A stretch of DNA of 64,000 bases, from the NCBI RefSeq assembly GCF_058153355.1, contig NZ_CM177019.1, one strand, 5' to 3'. The notes below the pieces were generated by a model. The model worked only from the letters and a program-made list of their open reading frames with translations. It was not told the DNA's origin and searched no databases. Positions 10,421-44,458 of this stretch are shown here, piece after piece. Positions within the stretch are counted from its first letter, which is position 1. Every line of letters starts with the position of its first letter. Position numbers and translations under genes: made by a program.

Positions 10421-10510
<90 letters not shown>

Positions 10511-10532
10511 GACTGATAAGCCAGGCGAAATA

Positions 10533-10997
10533 ATGAATTATCATCAGTACTATCCTGTCGACATCGTCAACGGCCCCGGCACTCGCTGCACCCTGTTTGT
10601 CTCCGGGTGTGTTCATGAATGCCCCGGTTGCTATAACAAAAGCACCTGGCGGGTAAATTCCGGTCAGCCATTTACCAAAGCAATGGAAGACCAGATCATT
10701 AACGATCTGAATGACACCCGCATCAAACGCCAGGGTATTTCCCTCTCCGGCGGCGATCCGCTGCATCCGCAAAACGTGCCGGATATTCTAAAACTGGTAC
10801 AACGCATCCACGCCGAATGTCCGGGTAAAGACATCTGGGTGTGGACAGGCTATAAACTCGACGAACTCAACGCTGCGCAAATGCAGGTTGTTGATTTGAT
10901 TAACGTGCTGGTCGACGGCAAATTTATGCAGGATCTAAAAGACCCTTCCCTGATCTGGCGCGGCAGCAGCAATCAGGTGGTGCATCATTTGCGTTAG
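10533..10997 (+). CDS. nrdG: Anaerobic RNR activating enzyme NrdG (radical SAM)
   Basis: 154-aa product from ATG 10533 (MNYHQYYPVDIVNGPGTRCTLFVSGCVHECPGCYN...); radical-SAM Cys cluster. Confidence 0.95.
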   Translation: MNYHQYYPVDIVNGPGTRCTLFVSGCVHECPGCYNKSTWRVNSGQPFTKAMEDQIINDLNDTRIKRQGISLSGGDPLHPQNVPDILKLVQRIHAECPGKDIWVWTGYKLDELNAAQMQVVDLINVLVDGKFMQDLKDPSLIWRGSSNQVVHHLR

Positions 10998-11288
10998 TCA
11001 CTCATCCAGCCGTTTTGTCGCGTCTTCATAAACGGCTGAGTTCTCTCTCTTACCAATAGCTATCACCAACACGAGTAACTCTTTATCATTGACCTGATAG
11101 ACCAGGCGATATCCCAGTGTGCGAAGCTTAATTTTGTAGCAGTCCGGCAAATCCCGTAGTTTAGCCGATGGATTGCGCGGCCTTTTCAGCACATCCCCAA
11201 GCTTTTTTTTAAATTGTTCCCGGACTTTCACGCCCAGTTTTTGCCACTCCTTCAGCGCCCGCGGATCAAAAGCCAGTTCATAGTTCAT
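10998..11288 (-). CDS. RelE/StbE-family toxin (type II toxin-antitoxin mRNA interferase)
   Basis: 96-aa product MNYELAFDPRALKEWQKLG...YKIKLRTLGYRLVYQVNDKELLVLVIAIGKRE, typical RelE/ParE fold signature; ATG overlaps the stop of the upstream antitoxin gene by 11 nt. Confidence 0.8.
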   Translation of the reverse strand: MNYELAFDPRALKEWQKLGVKVREQFKKKLGDVLKRPRNPSAKLRDLPDCYKIKLRTLGYRLVYQVNDKELLVLVIAIGKRENSAVYEDATKRLDE

Positions 11289-11520
11289 CCAGTCGGACCT
11301 TAATGGCCTCCTGTGGGTTGGCCAGTCGTTCCCTGACAGTGCGTAACAAGGCTTCTTCACTATCACTGACAGTGAGCGTTTTTACCGGCATTCGTCCATT
11401 TTCCGCAACGTACTGAAACAGCAGCCGCACTGCTTCAGTAGGCGTGATATTTAATTTTTCCAGCACCGCATAAGCCTCATTTTTCAGTTTGTCATCCAGG
11501 CGGACGTTAAGTGTGGCCAT
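11278..11520 (-). CDS. RelB/DinJ-family antitoxin (ribbon-helix-helix)
   Basis: 80-aa product MATLNVRLDDKLKNEAYAVLEKLNITPTEAVRLLFQYV...; ribbon-helix-helix N-terminus; GGAGG RBS 8 nt upstream of the ATG. Confidence 0.8.
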   Translation of the reverse strand: MATLNVRLDDKLKNEAYAVLEKLNITPTEAVRLLFQYVAENGRMPVKTLTVSDSEEALLRTVRERLANPQEAIKVRLDEL

Positions 11521-15851: not shown

Positions 15852-16850
15852 ATGAAAACGTTAGGTGAATTTATTGTCGAAAAGCAGCACGAGTTTTCTC
15901 ATGCTACCGGTGAGCTCACTGCTTTGCTGTCGGCAATAAAACTGGGCGCCAAGATTATCCATCGCGATATCAACAAAGCAGGACTGGTTGATATCCTGGG
16001 TGCCAGCGGTGCTGAGAACGTGCAGGGCGAGGTTCAGCAGAAACTCGACTTGTTCGCTAATGAAAAACTGAAAGCCGCACTGAAAGCACGCGATATCGTT
16101 GCGGGCATTGCCTCTGAAGAAGAAGATGAGATTGTCGTCTTTGAAGGCTGTGAACACGCAAAATACGTGGTGCTGATGGACCCACTGGATGGCTCGTCCA
16201 ACATCGATGTTAACGTCTCTGTCGGTACCATTTTCTCCATCTACCGCCGCGTTACGCCTGTTGGCACGCCGGTAACGGAAGAAGATTTCCTCCAGCCTGG
16301 TAACAAACAGGTTGCGGCAGGTTACGTGGTATACGGCTCCTCTACCATGTTGGTTTACACCACCGGATGCGGTGTTCACGCCTTTACTTACGATCCTTCG
16401 CTTGGCGTTTTCTGCTTGTGCCAGGAACGGATGCGCTTCCCGGAGAAAGGCAAAACCTACTCCATCAACGAAGGGAACTACATTAAGTTTCCAAACGGGG
16501 TGAAGAAGTACATTAAATTCTGCCAGGAAGAAGATAAGTCCACCAACCGTCCATATACCTCACGTTATATCGGTTCACTGGTCGCGGATTTCCACCGTAA
16601 CCTGCTGAAAGGTGGGATTTATCTCTACCCAAGCACCGCCAGCCACCCGGACGGCAAACTGCGTTTGCTGTATGAGTGCAACCCGATGGCATTCCTGGCG
16701 GAACAAGCGGGCGGTAAAGCGAGTGATGGCAAAGAGCGTATTCTGGATATCATCCCGGAAACTCTGCACCAGCGCCGTTCATTCTTTGTCGGCAACGACC
16801 ATATGGTTGAAGATGTCGAACGCTTTATCCGTGAGTTCCCGGACGCGTAA
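15852..16850 (+). CDS. fbp: Fructose-1,6-bisphosphatase class I
   Basis: 332-aa product from ATG 15852 ([32 protein letters not shown]...). Confidence 0.95.
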
Positions 16851-16887
16851 ATGAGTTAACGCCGGAGCAGTCCGGCGTTTTCAATTA

Positions 16888-17403
16888 TCAATTAACAAAG
16901 GTTAATTTGACTCGTTTAGATACGCAAAAATAGGGGATCCAGATTGCAAGATGGATGATACTTTTCAGAAGCTCCCATGCATCTGTCAATTCAAATGAGG
17001 CATTAAGAAAGTGCATTGTCCCCCAAATATCAGCCACAATGAATGCAAACAGTGACAGAAGAAGGGCAATATAATACTGTGGAAGCTGGCGTTTTTTGTT
17101 AAAAAACAAATAAGTAGTATAAATCAACAGCAGAAACAAAACGGCAAATCCGGCGGTTTCCAGATAAAGTGCCGTCCTGAGCGGTTCTTCGTAAATTACG
17201 TGAGTAAGCCCCCAAGTATGGATAATTGAATACGCGTTCGCAAGAATACCAAGCACTAAACCAATTGCCGGCAGAAATAGCCAGCCGCCAATCCCTGTAA
17301 GCTTTTTATCCGCACAACTTTTACAATAATCGTCAGGTGGTAAAACAGCCACACCACAGTTTTTACATGTTGTTTGTAATTCTTCGCCGTCCTTCACCCA
17401 CAT
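16888..17403 (-). CDS. Small membrane protein with an N-terminal CxxC...CxxC zinc ribbon and about four predicted TM helices (DUF2569-like)
   Basis: 171-aa ORF MWVKDGEELQTTCKNCGVAVLPPDDYCKSCADKKLTGIGGWLFLPAIGLVLGILA...; AAGGA RBS 7 nt upstream; visibly AT-rich relative to its neighbours. Confidence 0.7.
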   Translation of the reverse strand: MWVKDGEELQTTCKNCGVAVLPPDDYCKSCADKKLTGIGGWLFLPAIGLVLGILANAYSIIHTWGLTHVIYEEPLRTALYLETAGFAVLFLLLIYTTYLFFNKKRQLPQYYIALLLSLFAFIVADIWGTMHFLNASFELTDAWELLKSIIHLAIWIPYFCVSKRVKLTFVN

Positions 17404-17430
17404 AAAAATATCCTTATATATCAGTAAAAT

Positions 17431-18435
17431 TTATTCTTTTAGTCTAATTTCCGGACTCACTCTCATTACTGGCGAACTCTGGCGATTCTCCCACAGCACC
17501 GTTAATCCACGCTGTAAGGCAATAAAAATGAACAGCAAAATGCCGATGGCGATTTTCGTCCACCAGGAACTCAGCGTACCGTCAAAGTTGATATATGTCT
17601 GAATCAGTCCCTGAATCGCCACGCCAAAAAGCGTCCCAAGTACTGTTCCAACGCCACCGCTCAAAAGTGTACCGCCAATCACCACTGAGGCGATAGCGTC
17701 CAGTTCCACACCTACGCCCGCCAGCGCATATCCGGCTTGGGTATAAATCGAGAAAACAATCCCCGCCAGTGTTGCCAGCCCGGTGGAGAGCATATAAATG
17801 CGAATAGTGGTGCTGCGAGTGGAAATGCCCATCAGGTTCGCCGACGTCGCGTTGCCACCAATGGCGTATACCTGATTACCAAAACGGGTACGATGCGCGA
17901 GGAATATGCCGATAACCACCACCGCAAGCATCAGCAGCCCCATCGCACTTAAGCGACCGCCGCCAGGGATTTTCCATGCAAGGCTTGAGAGCGTGTCATA
18001 AACAGGATGATTTATCGGGATCGACTCTTCCGAAACTAGATAGCTGACGCCACGCAAAAAGAACATTCCTGCCAGAGTAATGATAAACGCCGGGATCTTC
18101 AGGGCGTCGATCAAAAGCCCCATAAATGCGCCAAAGGCACAGCCCATCACCAGCACCAGTGGAAACGCCAGCAGCGGCGAGAGGCCGAAATCGCCAATCA
18201 CTTTTGCCAGAAACACGCCGGTAAAGGCGATCACCGAACCGACGGAGAGATCGATCCCACCGGAGAGGATCACAAAGGTCATGCCAACGGCGATGATCCC
18301 CAGAAAAGCGTTATCGGTCAGGATATTGCAGATCACTCTTGTGGAAGCAAAACCGGGAAACTGCGTCAGACAGTAGAGATAACCCAGCACAAAGACGCCG
18401 ATGGTGATCATAAGCGGCAGGTTACGTTTTATCAC
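17431..18435 (-). CDS. yjfF: Galactofuranose ABC transporter permease YjfF
   Basis: Multi-pass ABC-2/monosaccharide permease; last gene of the ytfQRT-yjfF cluster; exact start uncertain. Confidence 0.9.
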   Translation of the reverse strand: MIKRNLPLMITIGVFVLGYLYCLTQFPGFASTRVICNILTDNAFLGIIAVGMTFVILSGGIDLSVGSVIAFTGVFLAKVIGDFGLSPLLAFPLVLVMGCAFGAFMGLLIDALKIPAFIITLAGMFFLRGVSYLVSEESIPINHPVYDTLSSLAWKIPGGGRLSAMGLLMLAVVVIGIFLAHRTRFGNQVYAIGGNATSANLMGISTRSTTIRIYMLSTGLATLAGIVFSIYTQAGYALAGVGVELDAIASVVIGGTLLSGGVGTVLGTLFGVAIQGLIQTYINFDGTLSSWWTKIAIGILLFIFIALQRGLTVLWENRQSSPVMRVSPEIRLKE

Positions 18436-21092: not shown

Positions 21093-22049
21093 TCAATACC
21101 CCATATTTTTCTTCTTCTCTAACTCTTCTTTTGCGGTATCAGGCAGGTAAAGGGTGGACTTGGTCAGCGTCAGCTTTTCAGGCATCGTGCCGTCTTTTTT
21201 GTATTTCTCCAGCGCGTCAAAAGCAGGGCCTGCCATATTCGGCGTCAGTTCAACGCTGGCGTTCGCTTCGCCATCAATCATCGCTTTGTAGATGTCCGGC
21301 ACGCCGTCGATAGAGCCTGTCAGGATATCTTTGCCCGGTTTCAGGCCCGCTTCTTTAATTGCCTGAATTGCACCAATCACCATGTCATCGTTATGGGCGT
21401 AAACCATGCAGATGTTTTTGCCGTTGTTTTCCGCTTTGATAAAGCTCTCCATCACTTCTTTGCCTTTGCTGCGGGTGAAGTCACCTGACTGCGAGCGGAT
21501 AATTTTGATATTTGGCGCATTCTTAATGGCTTCGGCAAAGCCTTTCTTACGGTCAATGGCGACGCTGGCCCCAACGGTGCCCTGCAGCTCCACCACGTTA
21601 CACGGTTTGCCATTCACTTCTTTTACCAGCCAGTCACCGATCAATTTGCCTTCGAGGATGTTGTCGGCAGTGACGGTGGTCATATAGAGAGATTTGTCTT
21701 TCACATCGATGGAACGGTCAAGCAAGAAGACCGGGATTTCGGCATCTTTCGCCTCTTTTAATATCGGCTCCCAACCGGTCGCTACCACCGGAGCGATAAA
21801 GATCGCATCCACCCCTTGCGCGACGAAGGAACGTACCGCTTTAATCTGGTTTTCCTGCTTTTGCTGACCATCGGCAATTTTCAACGTAATTCCGCGCTTT
21901 TCGGCTTCACTTTTCGCCACATTGGTTTCTGCGGCGCGCCAGCCGGATTCCGATCCGACCTGCGAAAATCCTACGGTTAATGGAGCAGCCAACGCCATAG
22001 ACGACATGGCTGCCGAGACTGCAGAGACTACAAGTAAGCGTTTCCACAT
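21093..22049 (-). CDS. ytfQ: Periplasmic galactofuranose-binding protein YtfQ
   Basis: 318-aa product with signal peptide (MWKRLLVVSAVSAAMSSMALA) and sugar-binding periplasmic protein fold. Confidence 0.93.
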   Translation of the reverse strand: MWKRLLVVSAVSAAMSSMALAAPLTVGFSQVGSESGWRAAETNVAKSEAEKRGITLKIADGQQKQENQIKAVRSFVAQGVDAIFIAPVVATGWEPILKEAKDAEIPVFLLDRSIDVKDKSLYMTTVTADNILEGKLIGDWLVKEVNGKPCNVVELQGTVGASVAIDRKKGFAEAIKNAPNIKIIRSQSGDFTRSKGKEVMESFIKAENNGKNICMVYAHNDDMVIGAIQAIKEAGLKPGKDILTGSIDGVPDIYKAMIDGEANASVELTPNMAGPAFDALEKYKKDGTMPEKLTLTKSTLYLPDTAKEELEKKKNMGY

Positions 22050-22119
22050 AGGGTTGTCCTCGTCGGGGTAATTATTATTGGTGAAAAGATGTTCGCGAAA
22101 AAACTATAGACAATTCGTT

Positions 22120-22140
22120 ATGTAACGGATTGCGTTACAT
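22120..22140. promoter_or_regulatory. Palindrome ATGTAACG-N5-CGTTACAT in the ytfQ/ppa divergent promoter region (candidate LacI/GalR-type operator)
   Basis: atgtaacggattgcgttacat, a perfect 8-bp inverted repeat about 70 nt upstream of ytfQ. Confidence 0.3.
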
Positions 22141-22358
22141 CACACTTCAAAAAAGTAAATAAAACGTTAATCACAAGTTTGTAATCGCTTTCATCTCACT
22201 ATGAAAAATGCGGCTACGGTTATGGATTTTCCTGCTCTGTAAACCTTCTTAAAACTGGCGAAAAAGGAAAATGAAGACGAAAACAAGCGAAGACATTCGG
22301 CGCGAGTTGGCTATAATACTCGGCACTTGTTTGCCACATATTTTTAAAGGAAACAGAC

Positions 22359-22889
22359 ATGAGCTTACTCAACGTCCCTGCGGGTAAAGATCTGCCGGAA
22401 GACATCTACGTTGTTATTGAGATCCCGGCTAACGCAGATCCGATCAAATACGAAATCGACAAAGAGAGCGGCGCACTGTTCGTTGACCGCTTCATGTCCA
22501 CCGCGATGTTCTATCCGTGCAACTACGGTTACATCAACCACACCCTGTCTCTGGACGGTGACCCGGTTGACGTACTGGTCCCGACTCCGTACCCGCTGCA
22601 GCCAGGTTCTGTGATTCGCTGCCGTCCGGTTGGCGTTCTGAAAATGACCGACGAAGCTGGTGAAGATGCGAAACTGATTGCTGTTCCGCACACCAAGCTG
22701 AGCAAAGAATACGATCACATCAAAGACGTTAACGATCTGCCTGAACTGCTGAAAGCACAGATCGCTCACTTCTTCGAGCACTACAAAGACCTCGAAAAAG
22801 GCAAGTGGGTGAAAGTTGAAGGCTGGGAAAACGCAGAAGCCGCTAAAGCTGAAATCGTTGCCTCCTTCGAGCGCGCAAAGAATAAATAA
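22359..22889 (+). CDS. ppa: Inorganic pyrophosphatase
   Basis: 176-aa product [45 protein letters not shown]... Confidence 0.97.
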
Positions 22890-23237
22890 GTTCTTCTAGT
22901 GCCATAACCCTGAACGCCGGGCTTCGGTTAGTAAGGGTTTTTTATGCCCGCGATAAATAAACTCTCTATTCCCCTATCATTATTCTCAGCGCTTGCAAGG
23001 CTTGAACGGTAAGAACAAGCAAACACGACCACCATTTTGCTGTTCATAGCCGCTTGCTGGAAATTAGCCGACCTCACTCATTCTCACCGTTCAAAGCATG
23101 CCCCCGTTTTACCCCTACGTAATTGTGAACGCCAGCAGAGTTTTTTATGCGTTTACGGATATGGAAAGCGGCTCGGAGAGAAAAGCTAAAGATAGGGAAG
23201 TTACAAAAAAAATCGCGAGATACATCGCATAAAACAA

Positions 23238-23263
23238 CGCCACCCGAAGGTGGCGTGCTTTTA
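23238..23263 (-). terminator. Rho-independent terminator downstream of ytfP
   Basis: cgccacc-cgaa-ggtggcg stem flanked by an A-tract and a T-tract (potentially bidirectional). Confidence 0.6.
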
Positions 23264-23266
23264 TTA

Positions 23267-23608
23267 TTACTTATCCCTGTCTAACCAGTCGCCGCTTTCA
23301 ATTAGCTTTAATCCATCGACGGGTCGTTGATAAACGTACATCCATGCACTCCCGTACGGCGTCTGAATCAACTGGCGCGCATATTCACCGCCCCTGGTGC
23401 GCAAGGCATCAAGTTCGGCCAGCGTGGCGTTGTCAATACGATAAACTTCACCGTGTACTGTTCCGTTCCCCGGAACTGCGCCTGGATAGTGGCCCAGGCT
23501 ATACAACTGGTAGTTATCGATACTGAAATCGCCCAGTAACTGGGCATTGGTCATCCAGTGACTGTTGCCTTGTTTGTGGCGTAAACTGCCGTAGACAAAT
23601 ATTCGCAT
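23267..23608 (-). CDS. ytfP: Gamma-glutamylcyclotransferase-family protein YtfP
   Basis: 113-aa product MRIFVYGSLRHKQGNSHWM... (AIG2/GGCT fold motif YGSL). Confidence 0.9.
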   Translation of the reverse strand: MRIFVYGSLRHKQGNSHWMTNAQLLGDFSIDNYQLYSLGHYPGAVPGNGTVHGEVYRIDNATLAELDALRTRGGEYARQLIQTPYGSAWMYVYQRPVDGLKLIESGDWLDRDK

Positions 23609-23610
23609 TG

Positions 23611-29162
<5,552 letters not shown>

Positions 29163-32224: not shown

Positions 32225-32779
32225 ATGACCCTACGTAAGATTCTGGCACTCACCTGCCTGCTGTTGCCGATGATGGCTTCCGCACATCAGTTTGAAACCG
32301 GTCAACGAGTGCCACCGATAGGCATTACCGATCGGGGCGAGTTGGTGCTTGATAAAGATCAGTTTAGCTACAAAACCTGGAACAGCGCGCAGTTAGTGGG
32401 AAAAGTGCGAGTACTGCAACATATTGCTGGTCGCACCTCTGCAAAAGAGAAAAACGCGACGCTGATTGAAGCGATTAAATCAGCAAAGTTACCGCATGAT
32501 CGTTACCAGACCACCACCATTGTGAACACCGACGACGCGATTCCGGGTTCTGGCATGTTTGTGCGCAGCAGTCTGGAGAGTAATAAAAAGCTTTATCCCT
32601 GGTCGCAGTTTATTGTCGATAGCAATGGCGTCGCCCGCGGTGCCTGGCAGCTAGATGAAGAAAGTTCCGCTGTAGCGGTGCTGGACAAAGACGGTCGAGT
32701 GCAATGGGCCAAAGACGGTGCGCTCACTCAGGAAGAGGTGCAGCAAGTGATGAACCTGCTGCAAAAGTTGCTCAAATAA
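32225..32779 (+). CDS. ytfJ: Periplasmic protein YtfJ
   Basis: 184-aa product with signal peptide MTLRKILALTCLLLPMMASA. Confidence 0.9.
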   Translation: MTLRKILALTCLLLPMMASAHQFETGQRVPPIGITDRGELVLDKDQFSYKTWNSAQLVGKVRVLQHIAGRTSAKEKNATLIEAIKSAKLPHDRYQTTTIVNTDDAIPGSGMFVRSSLESNKKLYPWSQFIVDSNGVARGAWQLDEESSAVAVLDKDGRVQWAKDGALTQEEVQQVMNLLQKLLK

Positions 32780-32811
32780 TGTTAATAACATAAATTCTGG
32801 AAAAATAAATT

Positions 32812-32840
32812 TCCCCTATCGATATATATGGGATAGGGGA
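32812..32840. terminator. Hairpin between convergent ytfJ and ytfI (weak terminator candidate)
   Basis: tcccctatc-N11-gatagggga stem. Confidence 0.4.
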
Positions 32841-32879
32841 ATTAAGTCTCTGAGTTTTTACGCCGAACTCATACTAGTA

Positions 32880-33803
32880 TCAATAACCATTATTCGCGTT
32901 TAACGGTTTTACCTCTTTTTTAAACGCTTCAATGGTAGATTTATATTTCTCGGAAATCTTTTCTTCGGTATAATTACCATTTGCGGCCAGATTTGCACTT
33001 ATAATCGCTTCCACTTGCTCGGTTATTTCCACTTGTTGGCAACCTGCATTAACCAGAAAATTATAAATAAGAGAGTAATCTTCACCCTGCAAAAAAATAT
33101 AAGAGCCAGTTCGAAATTCCTCATCCCCTCCATAGATTTTAAGAGCAAAGCCCAAAGATTCTATGACCATGGCATAATTTCTATTATTTATTTCCTCGCA
33201 AAAATACCATCCTTCACATTCTTTAATGCTACCTTCTGGCCCTTCAAGTTCAAATTTACCCCGTTTTAATTTGCTTACTACATTCTCCAAATAAGCAGAA
33301 TCGTAAGATAAGTTACCCGCCGCCTTCCGAAAATAACCGTTAATCCTTTCAGGTATGTCAGACTGTTTTTTCTGCAAAATATCATAGGCATACAATCTTC
33401 TATTTTGTGCTAGTGGAAATTCACGGTTTTTAAAGTCTATAAATGAGTTATACTCATTTATTGTTATAGGGATTTCTTCGTATTCAAATCCAGTGCCTCG
33501 CAATGTCATTGTATATTCGGCACCGTTATCTTTAAGGCGGAAGCTGATAAGAAAATTATCCATGGAGTGAACGGTTTCATCTTTTGATGAAAGCACCTGA
33601 TAACTATTTTTATCAATCTGTGTTGCTCTAAGAAAGAACTCCCTTAAAATTAACAGACTATCATAATTCGAAATCCAATCCCTTTTCTTAAATGCATGCT
33701 GAATATTATTAAAGAAATTATTTGAATGTATTTTTGTATGCGATGACTTTACAAATAACTCCACTGCACCAAAAAAATTATTGTGTCTGATCTTGGGTAA
33801 CAT
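32880..33803 (-). CDS. ytfI: Hypothetical protein, YtfI-like (function unknown)
   Basis: 307-aa AT-rich ORF with ATG start and no recognisable domain; position between ytfJ and cysQ corresponds to K-12 ytfI (from memory). Confidence 0.6.
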   Translation of the reverse strand: MLPKIRHNNFFGAVELFVKSSHTKIHSNNFFNNIQHAFKKRDWISNYDSLLILREFFLRATQIDKNSYQVLSSKDETVHSMDNFLISFRLKDNGAEYTMTLRGTGFEYEEIPITINEYNSFIDFKNREFPLAQNRRLYAYDILQKKQSDIPERINGYFRKAAGNLSYDSAYLENVVSKLKRGKFELEGPEGSIKECEGWYFCEEINNRNYAMVIESLGFALKIYGGDEEFRTGSYIFLQGEDYSLIYNFLVNAGCQQVEITEQVEAIISANLAANGNYTEEKISEKYKSTIEAFKKEVKPLNANNGY

Positions 33804-34015
33804 ATGACAACCTTATTATATTTGGTTATTCTATGTCGCCATTAAATATCTTATTAAAGAAGTAAACTATCAAAAAAAGCTCATTATTAAAACATAACTT
33901 ATTAACGTTAGAATATTTACACTTTAAATACAATCCCTTTATATCTATAACTTTTTAGGTTGGAAACAAATCAGGATGGCAGAATCAGGAAATACACTGT
34001 TTCTGCCATATATAT

Positions 34016-40185: not shown

Positions 40186-40193
40186 TTCGTTCG

Positions 40194-40226
40194 ATCAACG
40201 ATCCTGACATGTACAGGATCGTTGAT
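40194..40226. other. 13-bp perfect inverted repeat (hairpin) at the boundary between ytfE and the accessory operon
   Basis: atcaacgatcctg-acatgta-caggatcgttgat; no flanking T-tract. Confidence 0.4.
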
Positions 40227-40237
40227 TGTTAAGAGGT

Positions 40238-41731
40238 TCAGTCTTTCAATGGACGTAATTCATTGTTGTAACTGGTGTAACTGCCTTCAACGGTAAGTAG
40301 ATTGCCGTTTTCATCAAGATGCGCCGCATTGAGTTGTCGAGTTTCATTACGCCGCTTCGCATCACGTACCAGCCCATCGCCTACGTAATAAATATAGTGG
40401 TCATCATGAGCAAAGGTATCTGATAATTGACCATTGGCGTATTTAAACCACGTCCATTGGCCTTTCAGTTCAAATTGCTCAACCGTGTTTTCATCAATAA
40501 AATACGTAAAGCGATCGTCATGTGCTAAATAATTTAATGGTGTGCCATCGTGGCTTTTATACCACTGCCATTGCCCATTAATATCAAAAATAGTCACATC
40601 ATCGCTCGCAATGAAATAAAATTTATTCCCTATAATATTAACGCCTTCATGTAATTCTTGTTGTGGGTCGGGTAAATGAATAACCGACAGTGTTTTTTCG
40701 ACCCCAGAAACATACTTCACCAGATAGAGCGAATCTTTATATTGCGCCACATTCTTCGTCAGCGGGCGAAAATATTCCGGATCAACATCAGGAATGGTCG
40801 CAACCCGGCAGTCATTGGCACGCCAGGAAACGTCACGCGTCATCCATGTTACTTTATCCCGCTGTAGGTCAAACGTATTTCGGCACTCTTTACCGAACGC
40901 ATAACGTTTCTCCCCGTCCTTATCGCGATAAATCAGCAGGGAACCGGCTATCCAGCGCACAATATGAAAGGTGTCCGGATCGGCGTTGATGGAATCTCCG
41001 TTCACAAAGACCTGCGATTTTGTCCGCCAGATTGTATCCCAGGGTGCGGGATGCCCCCAATTTTCACAAGTGTTTGGCAAATAAAGAATATTCCGTTGGG
41101 CCCAGGGTTTAATGTCAAGAATAGAATATCCTTGCGTACTACCCAACCAGCGTCCCTGAAAGTAAAGATTGCGACGATCTTTCAGTACATCCGCGGAATC
41201 AATTAAATTCATCCTCCCCCCCACCTGTTGCAGCGAATCCATATCGACCTGCTTTTCGCCGTGATTATCATCCGTGCGTTCGCCATCAAAATAGAGGCTG
41301 TCTTTATCAGCGGCAAAACGCCCCCATGCGCGGAATGTTGCGGCATCGACTTTCGGTGTTCCCGGCGGGTTCTGAACTATTTTCCCTGCCCATAAAATAT
41401 GGCGACCATCGGTCAACCAGTCGAAACGCCAACTACCGTTAGTTCTGATATTAGTGCCAGCATCTACCTGAACATAATCATTATTGATATCATCAGGAGA
41501 ATCATATTTATCATCAGTGCCGTTGGGTACGCGGCGAAGTTGCTTAAACTTCACCTGCGATAAATGAATATCCGGAAAATAGAGTCCGTAACCATCACTA
41601 TCTTCAACGATATATTTTGTTCCTTGCCCCCACGGCTGGTAGTAAAACGCAGCAGCAGGCACACCGGAGCAGGCTAGTGAGGAGGTTGAAAATAAAGCCA
41701 GTGCGAGACAAACGGGTTTAATTGGCAACAT
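40238..41731 (-). CDS. Secreted repeat protein, paralogue 1 (DKNYY-like repeats; function unknown)
   Basis: 497-aa product with signal peptide MLPIKPVCLALALFSTSSLA; repeated D-K-x-x-[LIV]-Y-[FY] and A-D-x-x-T/S-F motifs (e.g. VDAATFRAWGRFAADKDSLYFDG); AGGA RBS. Confidence 0.75.
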   Translation of the reverse strand: MLPIKPVCLALALFSTSSLACSGVPAAAFYYQPWGQGTKYIVEDSDGYGLYFPDIHLSQVKFKQLRRVPNGTDDKYDSPDDINNDYVQVDAGTNIRTNGSWRFDWLTDGRHILWAGKIVQNPPGTPKVDAATFRAWGRFAADKDSLYFDGERTDDNHGEKQVDMDSLQQVGGRMNLIDSADVLKDRRNLYFQGRWLGSTQGYSILDIKPWAQRNILYLPNTCENWGHPAPWDTIWRTKSQVFVNGDSINADPDTFHIVRWIAGSLLIYRDKDGEKRYAFGKECRNTFDLQRDKVTWMTRDVSWRANDCRVATIPDVDPEYFRPLTKNVAQYKDSLYLVKYVSGVEKTLSVIHLPDPQQELHEGVNIIGNKFYFIASDDVTIFDINGQWQWYKSHDGTPLNYLAHDDRFTYFIDENTVEQFELKGQWTWFKYANGQLSDTFAHDDHYIYYVGDGLVRDAKRRNETRQLNAAHLDENGNLLTVEGSYTSYNNELRPLKD

Positions 41732-41763
41732 AGCATCATCCTGAAGCTGTTAGCGTGAAGAGG

Positions 41764-42921
41764 TTATTTAAATAAGGGTTTAAGACCGCTCGGGGGTTGC
41801 TTCACCGATGACCAACCTCCCTTACCTAAGTTATAACGCAGCCATTCACCTTGTTGGGCGTGCTCTTTCCCAATTCCAGTCGCTTGTTGAGTGTAAAGCT
41901 GCCCGTCTGTTGATATAAACGTGTTAGTTAATCCCCAACTACCACCTGCTTCAAGTGAGTCGGTGAGATCCTCTGGCTTGAGATTAATCAACTCCCCTTC
42001 GCCCAGGGCGTTGGTTGTTACTTTATAAATTTGGTTCTTATATAAACCGGTATTCCGAACAAACAGATAAAAATATTCCGGATCAACTCCCGCCAGCGTT
42101 TCATAAACACAATCACTACCCGCTGGCGTTGCTTCTTGTTTGAGCCAGGACACAGTCTTCAAACCAATATTAAATGACGCACAACTGTGACTAATATCCT
42201 CCAACTTATAGTCATGCTCACCGCTTTTATCGCGATAAACCAACCGTTCGCCAGGCATCCAACGTTTAATCTGAAAAGTTTTGCGATCGGCGGGCAGTGG
42301 CTTGCCATTAACGATCACCTGCGAATTTGTCAGCACAACAAATTGCAGGGCGGAATCATGCCGCACGATTTGAAATCCATCGGCATGACCCAACCAGCGC
42401 CCTTTATGCCAGAGGCCATTTTTATCACGCAGTAAATTCCAGATGTCCGTCTCTTCCAGCGTTGACATATCCACCTGCTTATCACCGCTATTATCATCGG
42501 TACGCTGGCCGTCAAAATAGATACTGCGTTTATCGGCAGCGAAAGCGCCGAATGCCTGAAAACTGGCAGCGTCGACTTTAGGTTTACCGGGGGGATTTTT
42601 CAGGACTTTGCCTGCCCAAATAACAAAGCGTCCATCGGTGAGCCAGGAATGCTGGCAATCCCCCTTATCATCGCAATCGAACTTATCGGGATTAAAATCG
42701 GACAGTAACCGGCAATCTTGCTTATTAGCTAAATTGGCAATGCGCCAGAGGCGGGAAAAATTAACGTCTGGTAATTCGGAGAGGATCTCATCTTCTTTTC
42801 CCTTCTGTTCGGCAACGTAAACCGTGCCTTTATCATGCTGGCGGTAATAAAAATCCGCGCCCCAGGAAGGTAAAATGGAGAGAGGTAATGCGGCGATTAA
42901 TAACCAACTGCGCTTAACCAT
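41764..42921 (-). CDS. Secreted repeat protein, paralogue 2 (DKNYY-like repeats; function unknown)
   Basis: 385-aa product from ATG 42921 with signal peptide MVKRSWLLIAALPLSILPSWGA; shares long identical or similar blocks with paralogue 1 (WLTDGRxxxWAGKxxxNPPGxPKVDAAxFxAxGxFAADKxSxYFDGxRTDDNxGxKQVDM). The ORF-track N-terminal extension (to 43080) overlapping cycA is rejected. Confidence 0.7.
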   Translation of the reverse strand: MVKRSWLLIAALPLSILPSWGADFYYRQHDKGTVYVAEQKGKEDEILSELPDVNFSRLWRIANLANKQDCRLLSDFNPDKFDCDDKGDCQHSWLTDGRFVIWAGKVLKNPPGKPKVDAASFQAFGAFAADKRSIYFDGQRTDDNSGDKQVDMSTLEETDIWNLLRDKNGLWHKGRWLGHADGFQIVRHDSALQFVVLTNSQVIVNGKPLPADRKTFQIKRWMPGERLVYRDKSGEHDYKLEDISHSCASFNIGLKTVSWLKQEATPAGSDCVYETLAGVDPEYFYLFVRNTGLYKNQIYKVTTNALGEGELINLKPEDLTDSLEAGGSWGLTNTFISTDGQLYTQQATGIGKEHAQQGEWLRYNLGKGGWSSVKQPPSGLKPLFK

Positions 42922-43013
42922 AGTGAACTCTGCAACGAGTGGCAAAGATCCACGGTAAGCTCGCGCCTGAGGGCTGTCTATGATGGTAGATTTTTTTAGG
43001 AATATATAAAGAC

Positions 43014-43035
43014 AAAGGCACCCGCAGGTGCCTTT
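43014..43035 (-). terminator. Rho-independent terminator downstream of cycA
   Basis: aaaggcacc-cgca-ggtgccttt stem with flanking T/A tracts, 20 nt after the cycA stop. Confidence 0.55.
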
Positions 43036-43054
43036 CAGAGTTATAAACGCGGCA

Positions 43055-44458
43055 TTACTTCGCCATGCGTTTTTTACCAATAAACAACCAGCCCAACCCC
43101 AGCGCGATAAACCACAGCGGGGTAACTATCAGCGCCTGGCGAGTGTCATCTTCCAGTGTCAGCAGCACGACCACGAACACAAAGAACGCCATACATACCC
43201 AGCACATCAGCTTGCCGAGCGGCATCTTGTAGATAGACTTCTCATGCAGGTGCGGACGCTGTTTGCGATACACCAGGTATGAGCAAAGGATAATCGTCCA
43301 GACGAACATAAACAGAATCGCGGAAACAGTCGTGATCATCGTGAACGCGCCAATTACACTTGGATTCACATACAACATCACCACGCCGCCAAGCAGACAG
43401 ATACAAGAGAAGGTCAGCCCTTTCGCGGGTACGGCGCGCTTAGAAAGTTTAGCGAACGCTTTCGGCGCAACACCTTCCTGGGCCAGACCAAACAGCATAC
43501 GGCTGGTAGAGAAGACGCCGCTGTTAGCGGAAGACGCCGCAGAGGTCAGCACCACAAAGTTGATTACGCTGGCAGCCGCAGGCAAACCCACCAACACAAA
43601 CAATTCAACAAACGGGCTTTTCTCCGGGACTACTGAACTCCACGGCGTCACGGACATAATCACAATCAGCGCGAAGACGTAGAACATAATGATACGGATC
43701 GGAATGGAGTTAATCGCACGTGGCAGTGATTTCTCCGGATCTTTCGTTTCCGCAGCGGTTGTACCGACCAGCTCAATCCCCACGAAAGCGAAAACCGCTA
43801 TCTGGAATCCGGCAAAGAAGCCACTTAAACCTTTCGGGAACCAGCCGCCGTCATTCCACAAATGCGCGAATGACGCTTCCACACCGGTCGGTGACTGAAA
43901 GTGCATCGCCACCATGACCAGGCCGACGACAATCAGTGACACGATGGCGACAATTTTGATCATCGCAAACCAGAACTCCATCTCACCGAACATTTTCACG
44001 GTGGCGAGGTTAAGCGTCAGCAGCAGCACTATCACCGCCAGCGAGGCGACCCAGTCGGAGAGATCGGGGAACCAGAACTGAGCATAGGCAGTGATGGCCA
44101 CCACGTCCGCCATACCGGTAACCACCCAGCAGAACCAGTAGGTCCAGCCAGTGAAATATCCCGCCCATGGCCCCAGTAAATCGGAAGCGAAGTCACTAAA
44201 AGATTTGTATTCCAGATTCGAAAGCAGCAATTCCCCCATTGCCCGCATCACGAAAAAGAGCATAAAACCGATGATCATATAAACGAAGATGATCGACGGT
44301 CCGGCAAGGCTGATTGTTTTACCGGACCCCATAAACAACCCCGTACCAATGGCCCCACCAATGGCAATAAGCTGAATATGTCGGTTTGTGAGATTGCGCC
44401 GTAGCGACTGTTCAGCCGGAGCCTGATCATCGGCAACGACTTTTACCTGATCTACCAT
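43055..44458 (-). CDS. cycA: D-serine/D-alanine/glycine:H+ symporter CycA (APC family)
   Basis: 467-aa product MVDQVKVVADDQAPAEQSLRRNLTNRHIQLIAIGGAIGTGLFMGSG... Confidence 0.95.
   Translation of the reverse strand: MVDQVKVVADDQAPAEQSLRRNLTNRHIQLIAIGGAIGTGLFMGSGKTISLAGPSIIFVYMIIGFMLFFVMRAMGELLLSNLEYKSFSDFASDLLGPWAGYFTGWTYWFCWVVTGMADVVAITAYAQFWFPDLSDWVASLAVIVLLLTLNLATVKMFGEMEFWFAMIKIVAIVSLIVVGLVMVAMHFQSPTGVEASFAHLWNDGGWFPKGLSGFFAGFQIAVFAFVGIELVGTTAAETKDPEKSLPRAINSIPIRIIMFYVFALIVIMSVTPWSSVVPEKSPFVELFVLVGLPAAASVINFVVLTSAASSANSGVFSTSRMLFGLAQEGVAPKAFAKLSKRAVPAKGLTFSCICLLGGVVMLYVNPSVIGAFTMITTVSAILFMFVWTIILCSYLVYRKQRPHLHEKSIYKMPLGKLMCWVCMAFFVFVVVLLTLEDDTRQALIVTPLWFIALGLGWLFIGKKRMAK

Follow-up and report, generated by a model that had tools for sequence, protein, structure and literature searches.

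The DNA analysed here, which we call the window, is one strand of a 64-kb stretch (64,000 nucleotides) in which ppa and ytfP are separated by a gap of 377 bp (positions 22890–23266). In E. coli K-12 strain MG1655, the gene order is ytfP (b4222), chpS (b4224), chpB (b4225) and ppa (b4226), and this order has also been tabulated with spacers of 211 bp and 79 bp (PMC5120126). The original prediction held that K-12 carries the chpS–chpB toxin–antitoxin (TA) genes at a site that in this DNA measures only about 375 bp; the first statement is confirmed by the MG1655 gene order, and the second is exact in coordinates and size. The features of the region are listed in Table 1.

Table 1. Features between ppa and tamB, with positions and strand in the window
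Feature	Position	Strand	Evidence or remark
ppa (inorganic pyrophosphatase), left border	22359–22889	+	176-aa ORF; 97–100% identity to annotated E. coli ppa
Likely ppa terminator	22906–22945	+	Stem 22906–22911/22934–22939, then T run; function inferred
chpB relic tail	22966–22998	-	TAG stop remnant 22966–22968 joined to codons ∼42–48; MAFFT alignment
chpB relic core, codons 7–41	22999–23095	-	blastn and tblastn; stops and frameshifts in every frame; sense-strand hairpin
Junction filler GCATGCCCC, 9 bp, at 312-bp deletion	23096–23104	.	Alignments
Distal chpS upstream region, surviving	23105–23236	-	Collinear with occupied allele, 92.6% identity
Bidirectional ytfP (tamAB–ytfP) terminator hairpin ACGCCACC-CGAA-GGTGGCGT	23237–23256	.	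Terminator scan; fold
ytfP (GGACT family), right border	23267–23608	-	113-aa ORF; Pfam GGACT 1e-28
tamB	23611–27390	-	

When K-12-type ChpB and ChpS were used as tblastn queries against the whole 64-kb window, no intact homologue was found, as expected if chpSB is missing between ppa and ytfP. ChpS (AbrB/MazE-type, 83 aa) gave no match in the gap, and its best match in the window was a chance match within tamB (E 0.18; 0.035 in a second run). The top ChpB match of the entire window sits inside the gap (23072–23001, minus strand, E 0.007–0.009) and covers 24 residues with an in-frame stop (VG*FPASGYEQQNGGRVCLFL compared with VGFDPASGHEQQGAGRPALVL). At the nucleotide level, blastn aligned positions 22997–23095 with chpB codons 7–40 at 76% identity (E 1e-15), and a local alignment of the same segments gave 78% (81/104 columns, indels included). 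Similar values were obtained with chpB of five Escherichia lineages (76–77% identity by blastn, E 1e-15), whereas the flanks within the gap are 90–93% identical to the occupied allele (blastn). Both a location between ytfP and ppa and nucleotide homology to chpB are therefore found in the window. An intact ORF for a PemK/MazF-family toxin (∼116 aa) is absent from the gap, in which chpB codons 1–6 and ∼49–115 are gone and stops occur in three frames. The prediction of an empty site thus holds for intact chpS and chpB but not for their remains: the gap contains a non-functional chpB stump, and next to it the segment that precedes chpS in occupied alleles.

The anatomy of this remnant, hereafter the relic, was derived by aligning five relic alleles and eleven intact chpB genes with MAFFT, and in this alignment homology, junctions and frame disruption can be read directly. 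The degraded fragment spans 22966–23095 on the minus strand (∼130 bp) and comprises codons 7–48 and a remnant of the stop codon. Read in the chpB sense from 23095 to 22966, codons 7–48 run directly into the last codon and the stop remnant (GGAATAG compared with GTGGAATAA). The internal deletion measures 201 bp, is in-frame and has its junction between TGGTGG direct repeats at codons 46–48 and 113–115. The tail of the relic (22966–22998) is the most variable part of the gap, with 0.46 steps per site. Stops are present in every frame of the relic in 5/5 alleles, and a 1-nt indel shifts the frame between alleles.

On its upstream side, chpB homology ends at codon 7, and the 9-bp filler, for which no source was matched, then joins positions 23105–23236. 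The 312-bp deletion at this junction took chpB codons 1–6, all of chpS, the Shine–Dalgarno site, the −10 box TATACT and the palindrome GTTATACTTTGTATAAC, none of which is left in the window. In autoregulated type II TA operons, a palindrome in the promoter region is as a rule the operator; GTTATACTTTGTATAAC is kept in all six genera with the cassette, and we consider it a putative operator. The chpS upstream region corresponding to 23105–23236 is present in all Escherichia alleles.

No other gene or signal was detected in the gap beyond the terminators. ORFs of 32–50 aa were considered as genes and rejected, because indels shift their frames between relic alleles: the frame-changing differences include the 1-nt indel, seen in B2 alleles, and a poly-A run of variable length. 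In addition, the ATG at 23098 of the window is GTG in most relic alleles. A sigma-70 promoter scan found no promoter-like site within the gap, and an Rfam scan of positions 22000–24000 gave no match at E ≤ 1. The candidate ppa terminator folds at −12.4 kcal/mol, with a z-score that is not significant; its sequence is common to the chpSB-bearing allele and is 88–96% identical in other Escherichia species.

Compared with K-12 chpS–chpB at the same position, the window retains counterparts of chpB codons 7–40 (22997–23095) and of the chpS upstream region (23105–23236) but is without the antitoxin gene, the promoter and operator, the toxin start and codons ∼49–115, and all frames are broken. Homology to chpB, a broken frame and identical junctions in independent lineages (see below) are the features by which a pseudogene is recognised, and all three were found. 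On the evidence of these alignments, the ppa–ytfP gap is best interpreted as a chpSB deletion scar in which chpB and the chpS upstream region each survive over ∼130 bp. Since the window carries this allele, which is unable to code for toxin or antitoxin, its strain makes neither ChpB, a sequence-specific endoribonuclease of the MazF family, nor ChpS.

To place the scar in context, GTDB species representatives were scanned with YtfP, which yielded 80 syntenic loci; named representatives of E. fergusonii, E. marmotae and E. ruysiae are not among them. E. whittamii and three further Escherichia lineages have an intact chpSB between ytfP and ppa, and so, with 64–78% ChpB identity, do Lelliottia, Enterobacter asburiae, Pseudocitrobacter (two loci), Kluyvera genomosp. 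1 and one more Enterobacteriaceae isolate. In all chpSB loci of these lineages, chpS starts 212–217 bp past ytfP, and the upstream regions align across genera and have the operator in common. The cassette appears to be ancestral at the ppa–ytfP site across several enterobacterial genera.

It might be argued that the lineage of the window never had chpSB and that K-12-type strains gained the cassette by insertion. TA loci are commonly seen as mobile islands, and in many species the ppa–ytfP gap is minimal (93–190 bp), with only two terminators in many genera. However, when E. asburiae is compared with four chpSB-less Enterobacter, the truly minimal sites turn out to lack the whole cassette, upstream region included, whereas the gap of the window has kept that region in addition to DNA derived from chpB (E 1e-15). 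The chpS upstream region, present here and missing from the minimal Enterobacter sites, shows independently that the site was once occupied, and there is scarcely any chance that it never was.

At 20 loci, among them Citrobacter, Salmonella enterica subsp. arizonae, Enterobacter, Lelliottia and Silvania, the ytfP–ppa gap holds 1.6–3.5 kb of other cargo. In Enterobacteriaceae, this site is a general hotspot for insertions.

The frequencies of both alleles were counted directly in 5,426 complete E. coli genomes. Intact chpSB is present in 3,100 (57%) and the relic, found with a B2-type query, in 2,297 (42%); together they account for 5,397 genomes (99.5%), and the ppa–ytfP locus of E. coli is essentially biallelic. 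With the window's own relic as megablast query, 1,652 of the relic genomes were found. Carriers include BL21 and other B strains, O121, ST131, APEC O2:K1 and CFT073. Among the matches listed, RefSeq annotates nothing under the relic except in HH45. In that genome (NZ_CP116411.1, 4261304–4261815), the gap takes a third form of 512 bp, in which the ends are of the relic type, a core of 101 bp matches K-12 chpB at 100% identity and ∼130 bp are rich in G. Its PGAP annotation is a partial PemK/MazF pseudogene; an assembly artefact or an allele mosaic is the probable explanation.

Sharing of the relic across species was likewise observed directly. Relics with the same end points occur in the E. albertii type strain (86% identity to the window; this is the one E. 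albertii genome sampled), in the GTDB species representative SCPM-O-B-8794, which is labelled E. coli (93%), and in E. coli alleles of phylogroup A, B2 and others. Between the window and E. albertii, identity is 86% in the relic, 86–89% in neighbouring intergenic DNA and 89% in tamB; the relic has diverged to the same extent as its flanks and therefore gives no sign of recent transfer. Judged by these shared junctions, the scar would have arisen before E. coli and E. albertii separated.

Relic alleles are 83–99% identical among themselves, 70–74% identical to Escherichia chpB and 46–59% identical to chpB of other genera. Since they form one group that is closest to Escherichia chpB, we conclude that the scar arose once, within the Escherichia chpB lineage. 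An origin of the relic by import from a different genus was considered and rejected, given that blastn found no match to chpB of other genera, to which identity is only 46–59%. The difference between relic and Escherichia chpB (26–30%) exceeds that between relic alleles (≤17%), so that the relic is either considerably older than the split between E. coli and E. albertii or derived from an unsampled, diverged chpB allele. Both relic and intact alleles are found inside phylogroup A (BL21 compared with K-12) and inside phylogroup B1 (O121 compared with O104:H4). Taken with the single origin, this distribution indicates that the alleles have been exchanged by homologous recombination.

The window itself comes from a lineage of E. 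coli sensu lato that is rare and divergent. Over 40 kb it is ∼95.5% identical to CFT073 and 98.6% identical to 2020CK-00188 (labelled E. coli), the closest complete genome, with which it is collinear, and only five contigs on record encode exactly the same TamB protein. A 19.7-kb similarity search had suggested that there is no close relative (best 94.3%), a reading that was rejected because the ranking by coverage had been misled by a 2.9-kb window-specific insertion. This insertion (40186–43068, between ytfE and cycA) is missing from CFT073 and 2020CK-00188 and contains the genes for two paralogous proteins of ∼440–500 aa with signal-peptide-like N-termini (40238–41731 and 41764–43080, minus strand). 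Two other segments of the window, 16850–17459 and 32769–34013, have no counterpart in CFT073; at the corresponding positions, 2020CK-00188 carries a DUF2569-domain gene (fbp–yjfF) and a hypothetical gene (ytfJ–cysQ).

A lineage this rare, 98.6% identical to its nearest complete genome and only ∼95.5% identical to CFT073, could have lost a K-12-like chpSB recently and on its own. However, the same junctions recur in the 2,297 E. coli genomes with the relic, which belong to several phylogroups, and in E. albertii; moreover, the remnant is 24% diverged from chpB as against 7–10% for the flanks, and relic alleles are up to 17% apart. A recent strain-specific deletion is highly improbable. The rarity of the lineage leaves the conclusion of an old scar unchanged, since the window's relic groups with the other relic alleles.

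Twelve kilobases from the chpB scar, between nrdG (10488–10997) and cybC, lies an intact TA pair (10998–11520, minus strand) consisting of a RelB-family antitoxin (80 aa, Pfam RelB 6e-16) and a RelE/ParE-family toxin (97 aa, MNYELAF..., ParE_toxin 4e-14). The original prediction had named a relBE-like module at nrdG–cybC, which these domain matches establish as real, and had proposed that the TA repertoire of the region differs from that of K-12. It does, because chpSB is absent and the RelB/RelE–ParE pair, which is present here, is rare (454/5,426 complete E. coli genomes) and not found in CFT073. The chpB scar, however, is no trait of this particular strain, the relic being the second major E. 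coli allele (42%) and occurring in E. albertii as well. In 2020CK-00188, the RelE–ParE-family toxin is annotated as frameshifted and the antitoxin is intact, a parallel to the decay of chpSB.

A different history would follow if the old relic were the ancestral state within E. coli and the chpSB of K-12, O157 and O104 had been re-imported from another Escherichia lineage by homologous recombination. Intact E. coli chpSB is indeed very uniform, with 99% identity or more to the VE-V10-F chpSB taken as reference in 2,528 of the 3,100 genomes, and its hairpin segment (see below) is 95–98% identical to that of E. whittamii and other Escherichia alleles; relic alleles are more diverse (90–100%), and the presence of both alleles within phylogroups A and B1 requires recombination anyway. 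On the other hand, purifying selection on a coding cassette would produce the same low diversity, flank divergence does not separate the allele classes, and no donor lineage was found. We regard re-import as possible but on balance unlikely, and prefer the reading that intact and relic alleles have coexisted since the scar was formed.

The core of the relic coincides with a hairpin. As RNA in the chpB sense it folds at −47.9 kcal/mol (z −2.9, 0/200 shuffles), with a continuous stem of 26 bp and G·U in 10 of its 41 pairs, whereas the opposite strand folds unremarkably (z −0.8). The upstream (5′) deletion ends only a few bases away from where the stem begins. Quasi-palindrome correction at the DNA level was rejected as the sole origin of the hairpin, since seven transition mismatches pair only as G·U on the sense RNA. 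Codons 5–44 of intact Escherichia chpB form the same hairpin, which is stabler than expected from synonymous-codon shuffles (z −2.4 to −3.3; 2–7/400), so that the hairpin of the relic was inherited by descent. In chpB orthologues of Enterobacter, Lelliottia and Kluyvera, no such stability relative to synonymous-codon shuffles was seen. We speculate that the hairpin may once have limited translation of the toxin.

Could the relic have been kept because its hairpin functions, either as a read-through barrier or RNA-stabilising structure for tamAB–ytfP transcripts running antisense into ppa, or as a small RNA? The surviving piece of chpB is the very piece that folds on the sense strand, the upstream deletion stops near the stem base, and the relic, although bacterial genomes are biased towards deletion, has persisted from a time before the E. 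albertii split. Substitution density is also lower in the hairpin than in its neighbours (0.19 vs 0.31 steps per site, p 0.02), a modest difference that is not fully in line with pure neutrality. Against a function, descent from the hairpin of intact chpB suffices to account for the structure, and pairwise identity between the window and E. albertii is the same in the relic as in its flanks. Only one double-sided change was detected when covariation between relic and gene was assessed, and among relic alleles, changes that break a pair and changes that preserve one occur about equally often; the breaks include a U·U in the BL21 and B2 alleles, which are common, and two in E. albertii. The scans for promoters and Rfam families described above also gave nothing in favour of a transcribed element. 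Evidence for continuing selection on the relic hairpin is weak, and we consider retention for such a function improbable. A wider proposal, in which the hairpin, which Escherichia chpB would have evolved inside its coding sequence, is retained and the polymorphism of intact and relic alleles is kept across species because the hairpin serves as an RNA structural element (a read-through barrier or 3′-end stabiliser) between the convergent ppa and tamAB–ytfP units, seems if anything slightly less probable. The relic may well be evolving neutrally.

At the other end of the gap, the ytfP terminator hairpin has a folding energy of −19.9 kcal/mol (z −4.5). A 26–27-nt stretch that includes it is conserved at 100% identity in Klebsiella, Citrobacter, Kluyvera, Raoultella and other genera, an unusual degree of conservation between genes. 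Its 17-bp core CGCCACCCGAAGGTGGC (window 23238–23254) is the junction sequence of P2-like prophages elsewhere: it lies next to an integrase at the left junction in Z1323MEC0001 and next to P2-type late genes at the right junction in N50, two different genomes, and the integrase region of the P2-like prophage is 74.5% identical to phage P88. In the window, this attB-type core is unoccupied. In CFT073, the esiB state of the locus consists of the relic allele with an insertion at the ytfP terminator hairpin, and the duplicated hairpin bounds the island. The esiB gene is present in 188/5,426 (3.5%) complete E. coli genomes.

Three states of the ytfP–ppa locus have been described among 47 genomes (Pastorello et al. 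2013, mBio 4:e00206-13, PMC3735183): chpBS (53%), esiB (15%) and neither (32%). In that description, esiB is flanked by short direct repeats with partial inverted symmetry, and the passage on the locus terms the chpBS genes 'absent' with no mention of a chpB remnant. The window represents the 'neither esiB nor chpBS' state at the same locus, with the difference that it displays a chpB scar, and our counts (57% chpSB, 42% relic and 3.5% esiB) agree with the published ones in outline. In association studies, chpSB behaves as an accessory gene (PMC6096937). A search of open-access text found no description of a chpB remnant between ppa and ytfP. Lack of chpSB is ordinary strain variation that has already been published, and what was predicted as an 'empty site' is better called an 'old chpB scar'. 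What is new is a small addition, namely that the 'neither' state corresponds to a chpB scar, that the esiB state of CFT073 is the relic plus an insertion, and that P2-like prophages use the same hairpin.

Taken together, the sequence comparisons make it very probable that the gap is the non-functional scar of an ancestral chpS–chpB (ChpBI/ChpBK; MazE/MazF-type) cassette, formed by two deletions before E. coli and E. albertii split, and that the relic has coexisted with the intact allele since then. According to this model, an ancestor older than the split would have carried the intact cassette. One deletion (201 bp, in-frame, between the TGGTGG repeats) would have removed codons ∼49–115 of chpB, and another (312 bp) would have taken chpS together with its −10 box, operator palindrome and ribosome-binding site, as well as chpB codons 1–6. 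We infer that the toxin deletion came first, because loss of the antitoxin and promoter would be tolerable only with a toxin already silent or inactive, the in-frame deletion is the evident inactivating step, and no unopposed toxin would then have been set free; the other order or near-simultaneity is also possible, as the 5′ deletion itself takes the promoter and the toxin start. The remnant would later have gained stops, frameshifts and ∼25% substitutions, and relic and intact alleles would have persisted together, shuffled among lineages by homologous recombination. Today the gap would serve only as the convergent terminator region of ppa and tamAB–ytfP.

For genome annotation, the result means that ∼2,300 complete RefSeq E. 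coli genomes (among them BL21, ST131, Nissle/CFT073-type strains and O121) contain a chpB pseudogene fragment that, among the matches listed, is unannotated except in HH45, and that 'absent' calls in TA surveys conceal former occupation of the ppa–ytfP site. An apparently ancestral chpSB with one old loss in Escherichia runs contrary to the default view of chromosomal TA loci as recent mobile acquisitions. The scar also illustrates a route by which an 'addictive' module may be lost, with the toxin inactivated as well as the antitoxin, and the ytfP terminator hairpin beside it offers P2-like prophages and the esiB island a conserved place to integrate. As the absence of chpSB from many strains was already on record, the wider biological weight of these findings is small; the relic, its junctions and its depth are a modest addition to annotation and to the evolution of the locus.

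A parallel is the reported decay of ccdO157 in E. coli (Mine et al. 2009, Genetics 181:1557). Like chpSB, ccdO157 is a chromosomal type II TA system with a fixed site, where some strains have it intact and others in degenerate form, and in both cases inactivation of the toxin would be the step that permits loss. The ccdO157 operon reportedly decays mostly by point mutations and is still recognisable, whereas chpSB has left one much older scar of two deletions that is common to several species.
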